From: Alphaproteobacteria bacterium
GTDB lineage: Bacteria > Pseudomonadota > Alphaproteobacteria > Rs-D84 > SZUA-605
Length of the DNA stretch: 64,000 bases
Direction of reading: 5' to 3'
Assembly (NCBI GenBank): GCA_031549385.1
Contig: JAVBPW010000005.1
Coordinates: 1 to 64,000 of the forward strand
How positions within the stretch are numbered: the first letter of the stretch is position 1; the number at the start of each line of letters is the position of its first letter. This document shows, one piece after another, positions 11,326 through 62,506 of the stretch. A program made the position numbers and the translations under genes. Under the pieces are notes generated by a model. The model was not told the DNA's origin. It searched no databases and worked only from the letters and a program-made list of their open reading frames with translations.

Positions 11326-12614
11326 TGGCAAAAGTTAGCGCAAAACCTTTATCTGGATTTATTGAATTAAAACCTCTGCAACAAGTTAAATTTAATGAAA
11401 TCGTTGATTCTCTAAAACAAAAGTTAGAGATTTTTGGTTTTATGCCTTTGGATTTGCCTATTATTGAAAGACAAGAAGTTTTGATTGATGAAACTGATAA
11501 AAATGAAACTCAAAATCAAATGTATCTTTTTGAAAAAGGTGAAAATAAATTAGGACTTCGTTTTGATGGAACTGTTGGGTTGGCTCGATTTGTTGCTGGA
11601 AATGCTAATGATTTAACTTTTCCTTTCAGACGTTATCAGGTGGGTCGAAATTTCAGAGGAGAACGTCCTCAAAAAGGAAGATACAGAGAGTTTTATCAAT
11701 GTGACTTTGATATTATTGGGGAAAATACTCTTGATTCTTCATATGAATTTGAAATTATTAATTTAATTTATGAATTGTTTGAAACTTTGAAACCTTATGT
11801 TGGTGATGTTATTATTAAAGTTGGTTCTCGTAAAATTTTAAATGAAATCTTTAATTATTTAGATATTGAAGAGAGTGTTAGACAGAATATATTAATTTTC
11901 ATTGATAAAAAAATGAAAGTTTCAAGAGATGAATTAGTTGAAATGATGCAAGAATATATTGGTCAAGCAAAAGCAGAAAAACTTTATGAAATTATTGAAG
12001 GTGACTATAAAAAATTACAAGGATTAACTCCAGAATTAGATGAGAAGATTGCTGAACTTTCTGTTATTGCGGATATGATTGTTAATATAACTGGCGCAAA
12101 GAATGTTGAATTTGATTTGTCTATTGTTCGCGGACTTGGATATTATACAGGTGTTGTGTTTGAAGTGTTTTTGAAAAATGAACCTTCACTTGGTTCTGTT
12201 TGTGGTGGCGGACGTTATGATAATTTATCAGATAAATTTAGTTCTCGTAAATTTGTTGGTGTTGGTGGGGCAATTGGAGTTTCTCGACTTTTTGTTCCTA
12301 TGATTGAAAGTGGAGCGATTAAATTAGATAAAAATCTTGTTGATGTGGTTGTTATTGCTATGAACGCTTCTAATAATTCATATGCTCAAGTTACAGGAAA
12401 TCGTTTGAGAGATGCTGGAATTAAAACTATTGTGAATATAGATAGTTCTAAATTCAAAAAGAAACTTGAAAATGCTAATAAATTAGATGCAAAATATATC
12501 GTTGTTATTGGTGATGATGAAGAAGTTGAACAACTTGTTACACTCAAAAATATGGATACTGGTGAAAGTGAAAAAATCTCAGTAAACCAAGTTATAGAAA
12601 AATTAGGTAAATAA
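11325..12614 (+). CDS. hisS: Histidine--tRNA ligase
   Basis: [41 protein letters not shown]. Confidence 0.97.
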
Positions 12615-12619
12615 AACTC

Positions 12620-13681
12620 ATGGCTTTTATAGATAAATTAAATGAATTAAAAACTAAGCATGCAACTTTAGGAGATCGCTTGTTGGAAGGCGGTTTTTCA
12701 GATAATAGGGAATTTGCTAAAATTTCTAAAGAGTATTCTGATTTAGGTGATATTGTTGAAATTATCGACAGATATTTAAGTGCTGTTAGCAATTTTGAAC
12801 AGGCTAAAAAACTTCTTAGCGATCCTGAAATGAAAGAAATTGCTCAGATGGAATATGAAGATTTAAAAGATAAAGTTCCTGCTTTGGAAAAAGAATTGCA
12901 AATTGCTTTGCTTCCTAAAGATGTGGATGATGATAGAAATGCTATTTTAGAAATTAGAGCAGGGACTGGTGGTGATGAAGCTTCATTATTTGCTGGTGAT
13001 TTGTTTAGAATGTATCAAGGATATGCTTCCTTAAAAGGATGGGGATTTGAAATACTTGATGAATCTCCTACCGATCTTAAAGGATATAAGGAAGTTATAG
13101 TTCTTGTTTCTGGAAAAGGAGCTTATTCAAGATTGAAATTTGAATCTGGGACTCACAGAGTACAACGTGTGCCTGAAACTGAAGCGTCTGGACGTGTTCA
13201 TACTTCGGCTGCTACTGTTGCTGTGATGCCAGAAGTTTCTGAAATTGATGTTGAACTTAATCCTGCGGAACTTCGCATTGATACTTTCCGTGCTTCTGGA
13301 GCTGGTGGACAACACGTTAATAAAACTGATAGTGCTATTCGAATTACTCATATTCCAACTAATACAGTTGTTGCATGCCAAGATGAAAGATCCCAACATA
13401 AAAATAAAGAAAGAGCTATGAAAATGTTGATGGCTAGACTTTACGATGTGCAAAAAGAACAACAAGATAAAGAACGCTCATCAGCACGTAAATCTCAAGT
13501 AGGTTCAGGGGATAGGTCTGAACGTATAAGAACCTATAATTTTCCACAATCTCGTGTGTCAGATCACCGTATTAATCTTACACTGTATAAGCTGGCTACA
13601 GTTATGACAGGAGAGGATCTTGACGAACTGATAGGGGCGTTGATTACAGCTTCACAACTTGAAGCTTTACAAAACTTATAA
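12620..13681 (+). CDS. prfA: Peptide chain release factor 1
   Basis: GTGGDEA, PET motif (RVPETE), GAGGQHVN. Confidence 0.97.
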
Positions 13682-13682
13682 T

Positions 13683-48157: not shown

Positions 48158-49324
48158 ATGCCAAAACTTAAAAAAGAAATAGATATTAAACAAGAAATAG
48201 TTCCTGATACGAATGAGTTCAAAAAGGGATTAAAGAAAACTAAAGTAACAGAAGAGGTTGCTGAAGAAAAAGTAAAAAAGGTTGCTGTTAAAAAAACAAG
48301 CAAACCAGCAGAAGATAATGTAAAAGTTACAGAAGGAAGACTTTCTGATCTTGTCGACGATGAAACTGTCGAAAAACTTAAAAAAGATGATAATGGGGAT
48401 CCAAGAACTAAAACACCAGCTTGGTTGCAATACAGAATGGGATCTCGTCTGATTTCTAATGCTCAATACTCACAGGCTATTGCTGAACTTGATAAAGCTG
48501 CCGCATTAGATAAAAATAAAGAAATTTGGGAAATTCATAATTCTAAAGGTTTTGCTCTTATGAAAATGGGCAAATACAATGAAGCTATTGTTGAATACAA
48601 TGAAGCTTTAAAGATAAAACCACGTGCTGTTACTGTTTGGGCTAATAAAGGTATGGCTTATTCTTTATCAGGGCTTTTTTCAGATGCTTTTGAATCATTT
48701 GAAATTGCTCTTTCTATTGAGCCTAATAATTTAGATGTTCTTAATGGTAAAGCGGTTACTTATCAAAAATTATTCAAATACAAAGAAGCACTTGATGTGC
48801 TTGAATATATGCTCAAAGTTAATCCAAAAAGAATTGATACTTTGATGTCTATTGGAACTACATTACAAAAATTGAAGCTTTATGATAAGGCTATGATTTA
48901 TTTTGATAAAGTTATTTCTTTTGATAAAAAATATATTCCTGCGTGGAATTCTAAAGGTGTAGTTTATAGCTTTATGGGAGATACTGATAAAGCACTTGAG
49001 AGCTTTAATCATATATTAAAAATAGATAAAACTGCATTTGTAGCTCATGTTTCTATTGGTTATGTGTACCAAGCTCAAGAACAATATTTGATTGCTTTAG
49101 AGCACTACGAAAAAGCTAAAAAAATGAATTTAGGTCGTTACAGTCATAATATATGGGATGGAAAGGCTTCTTGTTTGACTAAATTAGGTCGATTTGATGA
49201 AGCTTTGAATACTTATAAAGAAATTATTAATCATGAGCAGGGGACTAAAAAGTTCGGTGCTGAAAGATCTTACCGTTTTGTAGAACGATTAATATCAAAG
49301 GGAGCTAAGCCCTTGCAAAATTAA
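48158..49324 (+). CDS. Tetratricopeptide repeat protein
   Basis: Repeated W/H-N-x-KG...A...Y/F-x-x-A-L TPR units; charged N-terminal extension. Confidence 0.9.
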   Translation: MPKLKKEIDIKQEIVPDTNEFKKGLKKTKVTEEVAEEKVKKVAVKKTSKPAEDNVKVTEGRLSDLVDDETVEKLKKDDNGDPRTKTPAWLQYRMGSRLISNAQYSQAIAELDKAAALDKNKEIWEIHNSKGFALMKMGKYNEAIVEYNEALKIKPRAVTVWANKGMAYSLSGLFSDAFESFEIALSIEPNNLDVLNGKAVTYQKLFKYKEALDVLEYMLKVNPKRIDTLMSIGTTLQKLKLYDKAMIYFDKVISFDKKYIPAWNSKGVVYSFMGDTDKALESFNHILKIDKTAFVAHVSIGYVYQAQEQYLIALEHYEKAKKMNLGRYSHNIWDGKASCLTKLGRFDEALNTYKEIINHEQGTKKFGAERSYRFVERLISKGAKPLQN

Positions 49325-50235: not shown

Positions 50236-51132
50236 TTTTTCGTTTTCGATTTTATAAGTGATAGGCAAAAAGTCTATCACTTTTTTATATCTGTTTGGGA
50301 ATTTTACCCAATCTTTTGATGTGGTTATTGGAATTATGTTTTTAAATGTTGATATATCTTCTATTTCCTTTAATTCTTTATTTGTATATGCATGATGATC
50401 CATAAATGATTTAGCTACCGATATTTTTGCACCTGTTTCTCTTAGTGTATTATAAAATTTTTCTGGTTTGCCTATGCCTGCAAAAGCATAGTAAGCTTTG
50501 TATTTGCTTGGTTTGAACTTTGTTTGTACTTTTACTTCTATTACAGGGAAGTCTGTTAGTTTTTTCTTTATTCCTGTTTTGTCTGGACCTACTATTACAA
50601 ATGCATTGGCTCTTTTTTTACCAAATGATAGGTATTCTCTTAATGGGCCTGATGGAATTACTTGTCCATTGCCTAAACCTGTTTTACCGTCTATTACAAC
50701 GAATGAAAAATCTTTATAGATTGTTGGACTTTGAAAGCCGTCATCCATTATTAAAATGTTTGCTCCGTCTTTGATTGCCATTTGTGCTATTTTTGCTCGG
50801 TCTTCTCCTACATAGGTTGGAGCGGTGTAAGAGAGCATTAATGGTTCATCGCCTACATCTTTATAGTTATGAATTTTATTATTTACTTTTACGTATTTTA
50901 ATTTGCCTTTATAACCACGAGATAAAATTGCTGGTTTTAGTTTTTTTTCTTTTAAATAATTTGCTAAATATTCTGTGAATGGGGTTTTTCCTACGCCACC
51001 TACATTGATGTTTCCTACACAAATTACAGGAACACTTGCTTTGAATGGTTTTGAAAATTTAAGACGTAGTTGAGTGATTGCATTATATATTAAGCCTATT
51101 GGAATTAAAAAAAACTTTAATATTTCAATCAT
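50200..51132 (-). CDS. lpxK: Tetraacyldisaccharide 4'-kinase
   Basis: PVICVGNINVGGVGKTP, SRGY, GDEP, DDGFQ, PSGPLRE. Confidence 0.96.
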   Translation of the reverse strand: MIEILKFFLIPIGLIYNAITQLRLKFSKPFKASVPVICVGNINVGGVGKTPFTEYLANYLKEKKLKPAILSRGYKGKLKYVKVNNKIHNYKDVGDEPLMLSYTAPTYVGEDRAKIAQMAIKDGANILIMDDGFQSPTIYKDFSFVVIDGKTGLGNGQVIPSGPLREYLSFGKKRANAFVIVGPDKTGIKKKLTDFPVIEVKVQTKFKPSKYKAYYAFAGIGKPEKFYNTLRETGAKISVAKSFMDHHAYTNKELKEIEDISTFKNIIPITTSKDWVKFPNRYKKVIDFLPITYKIENEKLLAQVIHDLLT

Positions 51133-59717: not shown

Positions 59718-59782
59718 TTAAAAAGCTTTCGGCAAGCAAAAAATTGTTGTTTTTTAGTCTTTTTTATAATATAATGATGTTT

Positions 59783-60391
59783 ATGAAGAGGGGAGTTTTT
59801 AGTTTTTGTTTTTTGATTGTAAGTGCTTATATTTCAAGCTCTTTTGCACAAAAAATTGTTGACAATGAAAAAGATTGTAATTTGATGCTACGTAGAAAAT
59901 TTTTGCAGTTTTGTGATAATGGTCAGGAATTGAATAATTACAAAGAATGTTTAGAATCAGAGTATGAACAAATGTCTAAATATTTAAATATAGAATCAGA
60001 AATGCCAGAGTGTATTAATGAAGCTAAGACAGAATATAATGCATTTAAAGTTCAACAAAAAGAATTGCAGAATAATCAGAGTCAAAATTCAAGTGAGTGT
60101 ATAAAATCAAAACAAAATTTAAGTGCTGTTGAATATTGTGTTAGGTATGCTAAATCACTTGGTGAATTTAGAATGAGAAGTTATTCTAATAGATATAAAA
60201 TTGATAATATGTGTGGTGAAAAAGTTATTGGAAATAACTCTGTGAGAAATGCTATATATAATTTAGTTTTTCAAAAAAATATAATTGTGATTGATCCATC
60301 ATTAATTATGCTTACTGAAGATTATAATAAAGGTATGGATAAAATTTATAATGAGTATTTGGCAAAAACCAAAATGTTTTGTGGGGAATAA
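59783..60391 (+). CDS. Secreted Cys-containing hypothetical protein
   Basis: Signal peptide MKRG...SSFA; eight Cys in the mature part. Confidence 0.7.
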   Translation: MKRGVFSFCFLIVSAYISSSFAQKIVDNEKDCNLMLRRKFLQFCDNGQELNNYKECLESEYEQMSKYLNIESEMPECINEAKTEYNAFKVQQKELQNNQSQNSSECIKSKQNLSAVEYCVRYAKSLGEFRMRSYSNRYKIDNMCGEKVIGNNSVRNAIYNLVFQKNIIVIDPSLIMLTEDYNKGMDKIYNEYLAKTKMFCGE

Positions 60392-60524: not shown

Positions 60525-61259
60525 ATGTTTTTTACAGAAAAACCAGCAATTTCTATTATAGTTACTGTATATAATGATGCAAAACATTTAGAAGGTTGTA
60601 TCGAATCTATACTTGCTCAAACTTTTACCAGATTTGAAGTTATTATTGTTGATGATGGATCAACTGATAATAGTTTGAAAATATGCAAAGATTATGAATT
60701 ACAAGATAGAAGAATAAGAGTTTATCATCAAAAACATCAAGGAGCTATTGTTGCTCGTAATTTTGCTATTACTATTGCTAAAGGGGAATATATATTTCCT
60801 ATGTATGGTGATGATAAATTAAACGAAAGTGCTTTGTTTAAAATGTATGAAGCAATTCAAAACCAAGCGGCTGATGTGGTTTATTCTAATACTGAAACTT
60901 TTGATAACAGTAATGATATTATTGAAATGTCATTACCTGATAGAAATAACCCTTCAGGATGTGATATTAGTGTTTGCTCTGCGCTTTATAAAAAGGGAGA
61001 TTGGAAGAATTATCAAGGTTATGACCCTAATGTTGATTCTGATTTAAATCATTGGGAGTTTTGGCTTAACTTTATTGAAGATAGCAAGAAAATTGTAAAA
61101 CTTGATGATGCTTTGGTTTATTACAGAGAAAAAACAACTAATGTTTCTCCTGAAGATAAAAAACGAGTATTTGAATATTCTAAAAATAAACATAAGAAGC
61201 TTTATAATGCCCCTTTTGGAATGTTGCTTGATAGTGTTAAGAAATTATTCAAATTGTAA
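60525..61259 (+). CDS. Glycosyltransferase family 2
   Basis: ISIIVTVYN, IIVDDGSTD, GAIVARN; the DXD region is altered (YGDD). Confidence 0.88.
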   Translation: MFFTEKPAISIIVTVYNDAKHLEGCIESILAQTFTRFEVIIVDDGSTDNSLKICKDYELQDRRIRVYHQKHQGAIVARNFAITIAKGEYIFPMYGDDKLNESALFKMYEAIQNQAADVVYSNTETFDNSNDIIEMSLPDRNNPSGCDISVCSALYKKGDWKNYQGYDPNVDSDLNHWEFWLNFIEDSKKIVKLDDALVYYREKTTNVSPEDKKRVFEYSKNKHKKLYNAPFGMLLDSVKKLFKL

Positions 61260-61284
61260 TAAAAAAGGTGGCAAAAGCCACCTT
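61260..61284. terminator. Bidirectional terminator, direct-repeat copy A
   Basis: TAAAAAAGGTGGC-AAAA-GCCACCTT. Confidence 0.8.
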
Positions 61285-61295
61285 TTGTTTTTTAT

Positions 61296-61712
61296 TTACC
61301 AGTCGATACATCGTCTTCCGGTTTTAACTTCTTTCCACTGACTATCATTTCCATATCCTTCAATAATATAACCAATGAGGAGTCCGTTGAAGTATAATTC
61401 AGTGTGGCGAAAATCTCCTAAAGCTGGATTTTTCTTTATTTCAACATTTCCTGTTTTCAGTTCGTCCATATAAAGAAGGGGAATTTTGGAAAGAGTGCCA
61501 CTGACAAGCCAACGCATTACAAAAGGCGCATCAATAAACCCGATTTTTTCTTTTTCTTCTGATAATAATTCAGCAGGTGCCAATTTTCCTTTGGGAGTAA
61601 ATTTGATTTTTAAGAACTTTTTGAGTTCTTTATTCCAGACTATACCAAGGTCTTCACCTGATTTGCTCATAAAATCATAAGCAATGCTTGTTTGGGGAAT
61701 TTTTGAATCCAT
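61296..61712 (-). CDS. Orphan protein (cassette)
   Basis: 138-aa ORF preceded by TTGACA-N17-TAATTT and AAACTTAAAAATCAA (61732-61718). Confidence 0.75.
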   Translation of the reverse strand: MDSKIPQTSIAYDFMSKSGEDLGIVWNKELKKFLKIKFTPKGKLAPAELLSEEKEKIGFIDAPFVMRWLVSGTLSKIPLLYMDELKTGNVEIKKNPALGDFRHTELYFNGLLIGYIIEGYGNDSQWKEVKTGRRCIDW

Positions 61713-61778
61713 AAAATTTGATTTTTAAGTTTTAGAATGTTTTTAAATTAATATAAGGGTTTAATTTTGTCAAGGAAT

Positions 61779-61803
61779 TAAAAAAGGTGGCGTTAGCCAC
61801 CTT
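61779..61803 (-). terminator. rplI terminator, direct-repeat copy B
   Basis: TAAAAAAGGTGGC-GTTA-GCCACCTT. Confidence 0.8.
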
Positions 61804-61822
61804 ATTTATTTTTTCAAAGATA

Positions 61823-62272
61823 TTATTCTTGAGTGTTTGTTACAACTACATCAATTAAAGCTGAAACTTCTGGGTGAAGAGCAATCTTCACTTTGAATGT
61901 TCCTAATTCTTTGATTGGGGTGTTAATTATTACATTGTGTGTAGTTAATTTGATACCTAAATCTTTTAACAATTCTAAGATATCTTTTGGAGATACTGAT
62001 CCAAATAATCGGCCTGTATCACCAGCTTGTCTTACGATTGTGAAAGATTTACCATTCAAAGTATCTGCTATGCTTTGTGCTTTTTCTTTTTGTAGTTTGC
62101 TTTCAAGTTCAATGTCTTTTTTCATATCTGCAAATACTTTTGTATTTTGAGCATTTGCTTTTAATGCTTTTTTTAGTGGAAACAAGAAGTTTCTTGCATA
62201 TCCTGCTTTTACTTCCACTGTATCGCCGAGATGACCTAATTTTTCTATTTTTTCTAATAATATTACTTTCAT
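61823..62272 (-). CDS. rplI: 50S ribosomal protein L9
   Basis: MKVILL, VKAGYARNFL, GRLFGSV, PIKELG; SD GAGGTG. Confidence 0.97.
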   Translation of the reverse strand: MKVILLEKIEKLGHLGDTVEVKAGYARNFLFPLKKALKANAQNTKVFADMKKDIELESKLQKEKAQSIADTLNGKSFTIVRQAGDTGRLFGSVSPKDILELLKDLGIKLTTHNVIINTPIKELGTFKVKIALHPEVSALIDVVVTNTQE

Positions 62273-62284
62273 ATTATTCACCTC

Positions 62285-62506
62285 TTATTTGTTGTTTCTT
62301 ACGAATGGAAGAAGACCAATTATTCTTGCTCTTTTAATTGCTAGTGCTAATTGTCTTTGGTTCTTTGGTTTTACCCCAGTTATACGTGATGGTAAAATTT
62401 TTCCACGTTCTGATATATATTTTTCTAATAAAACTATATTTTTATAGTCTATTACTTTACCTTCAAGTGGATCACTCTTCTTGCGAAATACTAATGATTT
62501 AACCAT
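62285..62506 (-). CDS. rpsR: 30S ribosomal protein S18 (Cys-less form)
   Basis: [31 protein letters not shown]. Confidence 0.97.

Follow-up and report, generated by a model that had tools for sequence, protein, structure and literature searches.

The window, a 64-kb stretch of an alphaproteobacterial genome, contains a gene of no recognisable family that lies between two copies of one short terminator-like hairpin. The putative unit spans about 520 bp between a GT2-family glycosyltransferase gene and rplI, and in it a short leader separates a promoter-like site from an orphan ORF of 138 codons. Our tentative reading, which we consider quite possible but short of probable, is that a foreign promoter-ORF unit was inserted at a terminator shared by these two genes, that the hairpin was duplicated, and that the locus is an aged example of such an event; the insertion, the duplication and their timing are what the present arrangement suggests. 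The features of the locus are:

60525..61259, plus strand: GT2-family glycosyltransferase gene (Pfam Glycos_transf_2, E 2.9e-32) with native-like codon use (CAI 0.749), converging on the left hairpin
61260..61293, no strand assigned: left hairpin copy, stem 61263-61286, loop AAAA, with A- and T-tracts; candidate bidirectional intrinsic terminator for the glycosyltransferase gene (plus strand) and the orphan ORF (minus strand)
61296..61712, minus strand: orphan ORF, 138 aa, family not recognisable (no database family match; GC3 0.288, CAI 0.529)
61713..61778, minus strand: promoter-like site and short leader of the orphan ORF (-35 TTGACA at 61773-61768, -10 TAATTT at 61750-61745)
61779..61812, no strand assigned: right hairpin copy, stem 61784-61803, loop GTTA; predicted intrinsic terminator of the rpsF-rpsR-rplI operon (minus strand), terminator-like on the plus strand too
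61823..62281, minus strand: rplI (ribosomal protein L9), with the Pfam L9 N- and C-terminal domains; tail-less relative to 29/29 relatives examined

The hairpin at 61260-61284 reads TAAAAAAGGTGGC-AAAA-GCCACCTT and that at 61779-61803 reads TAAAAAAGGTGGC-GTTA-GCCACCTT. An earlier note on this DNA described the two as nearly identical, and they are: 22/25 positions match, and the three mismatches are bases 1-3 of the loop. Both hairpins were scored as terminator-like in the terminator scan. On both strands they fold at -15.0 to -17.5 kcal/mol (z -3.6 to -4.8), and 0/200 shuffles fold as well. The features of intrinsic terminators are present at both (stems of 8-10 bp, 5 G-C pairs and a 4-nt loop), with T-runs beside the hairpins on the strands of the glycosyltransferase gene, the orphan ORF and rplI. 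In common with bidirectional rho-independent terminators, they have a GC-rich stem, a 4-nt loop, an A-tract before and a T-tract after, and they lie 3-19 nt past stop codons. However, ordinary terminators of this type are not expected as a matched pair around one gene, as is the case here. A search of Rfam returned nothing at the gathering score.

The stem is rare. The pattern GGTGGC-N4-GCCACC occurs twice in the window vs 0 times in 100 shuffles, and there are only 2 occurrences in the whole genome (931,143 bases, 8 contigs), a count that does not change when any loop length of 3-8 nt is accepted. In a set of 40 relatives from this order, the hairpin is present once in 4 and never twice (as a control, the reversed pattern was found at 7 sites in 6 of the 40). 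The concern raised in the earlier note, that GGTGGC/GCCACC might be a common terminator stem, therefore does not apply, given two copies in this genome and 0-1 in each relative.

The similarity between the copies was described by the repeat search as a direct repeat of 34 nt at 82% identity (28/34), with a spacing of 519 nt, and as an inverted repeat of 42 nt at 79%. BLASTN favours the inverted alignment (26/29), and a count from the sequence gives 24/29 for the direct repeat. Because the stems are perfect palindromes, direct and inverted orientation cannot be told apart. Beyond the hairpin and its A- and T-tracts, the flanks are no more alike than shuffled sequence, and a longer original duplication that extended into the 3' end of the glycosyltransferase gene was rejected for this reason. 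The insert has no similarity to the rest of the genome besides the hairpin.

The two hairpins enclose the promoter-like site, the leader and the ORF just as had been claimed, with the -35 box 5 nt inside the right copy. This box is a perfect hexamer. The best -10 box is only TAATTT, at a 17-nt spacer, and the promoter scan did not list the site because this box matches at only 3/6 positions. A transcript from this site would be expected to start near 61738. No Shine-Dalgarno motif was found ahead of the ATG of the orphan ORF. The glycosyltransferase stop codon is 3 nt before the left stem, and the orphan ORF ends 9 nt from it.

Each border has a copy of the one short hairpin, with its GC core and with A- and T-tracts on both sides, the design of a bidirectional intrinsic terminator. 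The right copy is predicted to end the rpsF-rpsR-rplI transcript just ahead of the orphan's own promoter, and the left copy to end both the orphan transcript and the converging glycosyltransferase transcript. Given terminator-like copies at both borders, the orphan is predicted to be an insulated, separately expressed unit. Phage morons are stand-alone promoter-gene-terminator units, and the locus resembles them in that promoter, ORF and terminator form a self-contained unit between unrelated genes. Unlike morons, it is outside any prophage, and phage records and PHROGs contain no match to it.

Two further observations concern this region. A perfect 16-nt direct repeat, AAATTTGATTTTTAAG, occurs at 61599-61614 inside the orphan ORF and again, 115 nt away, at 61714-61729, directly before the start codon of the ORF. 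A family-less gene at 59744-60391 (plus strand, 205-215 aa) has a signal-peptide-like start, many cysteines and native codon use; searches of Pfam, NCBIfam, PHROGs and PADLOC found no match to it.

We did not identify a match to the orphan ORF in Pfam, NCBIfam, PHROGs, PADLOC or PDB, nor in metagenome, genome, viral, phage and plasmid collections. Among 5.8 billion clusters it matched only itself. Among 1.84 billion representatives it matched itself and one 27-residue motif; this motif recurs in a subtilase, in its fn3 domains, and is too weak a match for naming a fold. No relative is encoded in 40 genomes of the same order, where the one weak match (53 residues, E 6e-4) is in relative G017. 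A diverged copy of rplI was rejected as the source of the ORF, as the two lack similarity. A Y1 transposase was also rejected, since the ORF has no Pfam match and PF01797 has 0 matches in the genome; moreover, the ORF has a single histidine and so cannot carry an HUH motif.

The composition of the ORF is atypical. GC content by codon position is 0.446/0.331/0.288, vs 0.428/0.334/0.165 for 533 long ORFs, placing its GC3 at the 98th percentile and its CAI (0.529) at the 2nd. High expression does not explain the GC3 value, because GC3 is 0.09-0.23 in the ORFs read on the strand of the S10 operon, most of which are ribosomal-protein genes, with the exception of a 59-aa ORF that overlaps a longer one (0.39). 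A 376-nt metatranscriptome contig from the same study lies on 61338-61713 with 0 differences and covers the orphan ORF. Other RNA contigs lie on rplI/rpsR (62054-62366) and on rpsF, and none lies over the glycosyltransferase gene or the upstream orphan gene except for a 38-nt piece with 3 mismatches. None spans either hairpin, and such low-depth contigs prove neither transcription nor the ends of RNAs. The orphan ORF is probably a real, expressed gene with a foreign look. An inserted unit fits these results, because the bracketed ORF is an orphan, is compositionally atypical and is probably expressed.

Taking out the interval and one hairpin copy would leave 44 nt between the stop codons of the glycosyltransferase gene and rplI. 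This spacer is as long as that between ftsH and radC and is typical for convergent gene pairs in this genome. The earlier note had proposed that the deletion would restore an ordinary convergent pair; the spacer agrees with this, but the proposal is too simple, as the L9 tail has been lost and the end of rplI remodelled. L9, which is at most 53% identical to its counterparts in the relatives with an L9 match (n=39), ends here at the close of its C-terminal domain (61823-61830), whereas 29/29 relatives continue for 32-74 residues more. Their tails are acidic or lysine-rich and are rich in E, K and A. The right hairpin is only 19 nt past the rplI stop codon, so the tail-coding DNA is gone, and therefore the rplI end beside this hairpin was itself remodelled in this lineage.

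A search for an empty site placed a GT2 gene within 1.5 kb of rplI in 0/29 relatives' loci. Even the closest GT2 relatives reach no more than 37% identity, and they are located elsewhere. Metagenome and genome contigs scanned with the ORF and the glycosyltransferase returned nothing but one 25%-identical GT2 match, and no close relative. The rplI terminators of relatives have other stems, and the genes downstream of them differ between families. In the sole same-family genome (G001), gyrB and rplI are 6 kb apart with six other genes between them. Directly downstream of rplI in that genome, on the same strand and between murJ and rplI, is a family-less gene of 130 aa (L044 9299-9691), without a Pfam family and without matching hairpins around it. 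Kinship between this gene and the orphan ORF was rejected, as their local alignment score falls under the shuffle mean. We conclude that the slot is variable, because an unrelated orphan occupies the position downstream of rplI in the same-family genome.

If the unit was inserted with duplication of the hairpin, foreign DNA would have landed at or beside a single terminator once common to the converging neighbours, and the whole hairpin (about 25-34 bp) would have been left on both sides of the insert. Later the loops would have diverged, and the stems would have been held by the need for pairing on both strands. This kind of event is already known in other bacteria, and the locus would be one more case. 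Insertion with long target duplication (Nobusato et al. 2000; Furuta, Abe and Kobayashi 2010, PMC2853133) is described for inserts without mobility genes that have unique flanking duplications, often across gene ends. The duplications in PMC2853133 are longer than 30 bp (46 to >400 bp) and near-identical, are proven by empty-site genomes, and flank restriction-modification genes. The present locus is alike in the absence of a mobility gene from the insert, in the genome-unique direct repeat and in an insert composition unlike that of the host. It differs in its repeat of 25-34 bp with differing loops (22/25 or 28/34 identical, rather than near-identical over more than 30 bp) and in its cargo, an orphan ORF instead of restriction-modification genes.

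A shorter repeat has precedent in IS1630, an element of the IS30 type, which is reported to duplicate inverted-repeat targets of 19-26 bp (PMC2853133), with junction duplications of 16-26 bp at IS1630 copies (PMC3317919). As described there, the whole inverted-repeat target is found on both sides of the insert, and the 25-bp repeat here is within the range; by contrast, the insert here has no transposase or terminal inverted repeats, and the genome has no rve-type transposase. Terminator-like repeat families such as SPRITE, and RAYT genes flanked by inverted REPs, are among the elements covered in PMC3184786. The locus shares with REP/BIME, RAYT and SPRITE elements, as presented there, the short GC-stem hairpins at gene ends, and it differs from REP/BIME and RAYT in having only two copies, no Y1 transposase and no HUH motif in the ORF. 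In the published literature searched on terminator duplication around inserted genes, this exact pattern was not found for orphan genes.

The case for insertion with duplication draws on the uniqueness of the hairpin pair in the genome (0-1 copies in relatives), the foreign-looking ORF without homologues, the variable slot, and the typical spacer of the reconstructed empty site. It also draws on the RNA contigs, which lie on the ORF and the ribosomal-protein genes and not on the glycosyltransferase or upstream orphan genes, and on the unique long duplications and 19-26-bp IS1630 targets that are the precedents described in PMC2853133. It is weakened by the fact that the relatives searched include no empty site and that neither insertion nor duplication is directly seen; by a repeat under the 30-bp threshold of PMC2853133; by the ambiguous orientation of the hairpins; and by the loss of the rplI tail, which indicates that the locus underwent more than a simple insertion. 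The remaining points, which concern other terminators, bear on two alternatives considered below.

A serious rival, though in our judgement somewhat unlikely, is coincidence or convergence, by which two independent intrinsic terminators came to share an 8-bp stem. The design of an A-tract, GC-stem, 4-nt loop and T-tract leaves about six free bases. The 20-base hairpin design of this pair arises independently, because it is present in 37 unrelated viral contigs; it is also found singly in 4/40 relatives. We evaluated the likeness of the pair against 159 perfect terminator-like hairpins in the genome (160 before merging), using a graded score over 26 central positions. The pair scores 22/26, a value reached by 21/12,225 (0.17%) unlinked pairs and by 9/1,286 among bidirectional-like terminators. 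The number of pairs as alike as this one that is expected among 132 consecutive pairs is 0.23, and the estimate for a single 64-kb window is about 0.03. Under relaxed hairpin criteria (470 hairpins), the expected number of such pairs no more than 12 kb apart is 0.95. The loops are as unlike as unrelated loops and the flanks lack similarity, as coincidence would have it, and very many windows were read, so coincidences of this size will appear.

What coincidence accounts for less well is that the stem is found nowhere else in the genome and that the copies are consecutive, 519 nt apart, and enclose exactly one orphan, compositionally odd unit. In addition, same-stem terminators are over-represented at short distances, a result that also counts for insertion with duplication. 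We identified 5 same-stem pairs within 12 kb vs 0.43 expected, and 0/2000 label permutations reach 5. Two consecutive pairs share the inner 8-mer vs 0.16 expected (20/2000 permutations reach 2); across all 160 hairpins, the inner 8-mer is common to 15/12,720 pairs. The likeness of the pair is thus moderately beyond chance, unusual yet within coincidence.

A control relative, G035 (689 kb, GC 46%), has no local enrichment of same-stem pairs (4 observed vs 4.7 expected), which counts against insertion with duplication. What G035 has instead, on contigs 1 and 2 (L045-L079), is a family of dispersed hairpins, GGGGCGCA-N4-TGCGCCCC; of the pairs that can be formed from its 109 terminator-like hairpins, 147 share an inner 6-mer.

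The other four nearby same-stem pairs in the genome are found in various contexts. On contig 4, the identical hairpin AAAGCTCCT-GAAA-AGGAGCTTT is present at 48711-48732 and 50793-50816, at two convergent junctions 2.1 kb apart, and the three genes between have native codon use. On contig 7, an identical 19-nt hairpin (AGGCTGGA-ATT-TCCAGCCT) is present at 380666-380684 and 392057-392075. Both sites are convergent junctions, they are separated by 11.4 kb with core genes in between (hupB-like, truA-like and dnaN-like), and no other hairpin in the list has this sequence. Just past the end of the window on contig 2, 28-nt palindromes (AAAAAAGCTCCT-N4-AGGAGCTTTTTT) follow ftsH and a ksgA-like gene at 64952-64979 and 70715-70742; their loops, AAAT and GTTT, are one base apart if one copy is inverted. 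On contig 1, the terminator AAAAGCCC-CGAA-GGGCTTTT is found at 12056-12077 and 13663-13682, after each of two tandem ORFs (498 and 480 aa) that we take to be paralogues. The flanks of this last pair are similar, suggesting that a gene and the terminator behind it were duplicated as one.

Two other hairpin signals were observed. At 236189-236300 on contig 7, three copies of a T-rich unit, 45 nt apart, score as hairpins and have the look of a tandem repeat rather than of terminators. The end of contig 5 (91798-91821) and the start of contig 6 (114-137) have the same stem, with reverse-complementary loops and mirror-image distances from the contig ends. Contigs 5 and 6 may have an inverted overlap, or the assembly may break at a repeat there.

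The nearby same-stem pairs indicate a genome that copies terminators locally, mostly not around cassettes. In a preprint, 10.1101/2024.07.17.603904, terminators are described as turning over fast and as recurring in identical form in unrelated contexts. A second alternative, which we regard as improbable, is that terminators are copied locally or evolve in concert without any link to the arrival of a gene, and that the orphan is an older resident. Either the terminator of one neighbour would have been copied to the other site, or short-patch recombination would keep the two similar. The four other same-stem pairs, which are 1.6-11.4 kb apart, are in line with this explanation, as one is explained by tandem paralogues and two others enclose native-looking core genes. 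So is the loss of the rplI tail, since the present terminator may be a replacement. The pair at this locus is also the lowest-scoring of the five, and this weakness, like the recurrence of its design in viral contigs, detracts from insertion with duplication. However, the loops of the other four pairs are identical, or one base apart when read inverted, whereas those of the present pair differ at 3/4 bases. This difference counts against insertion with duplication, but it is also a difficulty for local copying, as conversion would be expected to homogenise the loop too.

Identical arms of 8-13 bases are very short for homologous gene conversion, and the codon use of the ORF speaks against long residence.

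Very improbable is recombination or transposition in trans that is specific to hairpins, whether attC-like or by an IS1630-like transposase that targets terminators, with the unit as a mobile cassette and the hairpins as its sites: two palindromes do enclose the unit exactly, and IS1630 is reported to target and duplicate 19-26-bp inverted repeats (PMC2853133, PMC3317919), but the genome has only two copies of the hairpin, there is just one histidine in the ORF, and inside the hairpins, at the ends of the insert, no terminal inverted repeats were found. Enzymes were sought in the genome of 931 kb, rated 97% complete. The best score for integron integrase (TIGR02249) was 143.5 bits, for a XerD-like protein, vs the cut-off of 265, and there were 0 matches to the Y1 transposase family (PF01797) and 0 to the DDE (rve) transposase family (PF00665). 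Four tyrosine recombinases were identified (one XerC-like, one XerD-like and two generic), the nearest of which is 47 kb away.

Integron cassettes are mostly promoterless and occur in arrays beside intI, and attC sites are imperfect palindromes, about 57-141 bp long, in which some bases are extrahelical and the core is conserved. The locus is like a cassette in having one small ORF between hairpin-forming sites. It is unlike one in the length and core of its sites, in its own promoter-like site and in the lack of an intI array: each site is a perfect 24-nt hairpin, and the sequence GTTAGCC at the right loop does not fit the attC motif GTTRRRY. The analogy to attC that had been drawn for this locus is therefore unsupported, because the genome contains no integron integrase and no Y1 or rve transposase. 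Excision joints, for which a search had also been suggested, were absent from the contigs of one DNA run, which probably is the source of this DNA; contigs are a type of data that drops rare variants. The proposal in the earlier note that the cassette entered by recombination at, or duplication of, a hairpin survives in part: the stem is uncommon and the bracketed ORF is an atypical, probably expressed orphan, but attC-like recombination is not supported.

Returning to insertion with duplication, a general form of this reading is that terminator hairpins are preferred landing sites for DNA that lacks a transposase, that break and repair at an extruded terminator copy the hairpin to both sides, and that orphans would therefore arrive insulated, often just downstream of strongly transcribed ribosomal-protein operons; the present locus would be an aged example. 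We give this broader idea little credence at present. Taken alone the locus makes a weak case, with no empty site and with diverged loops; it is useful as one further data point and as a caution that chance can produce short terminator look-alikes. If the hairpins are the scar of an insertion, however, the locus would illustrate how an orphan gene can still enter a genome that is reduced and very small (931 kb), and the newcomer would have been insulated at once from read-through of the ribosomal-protein operon.
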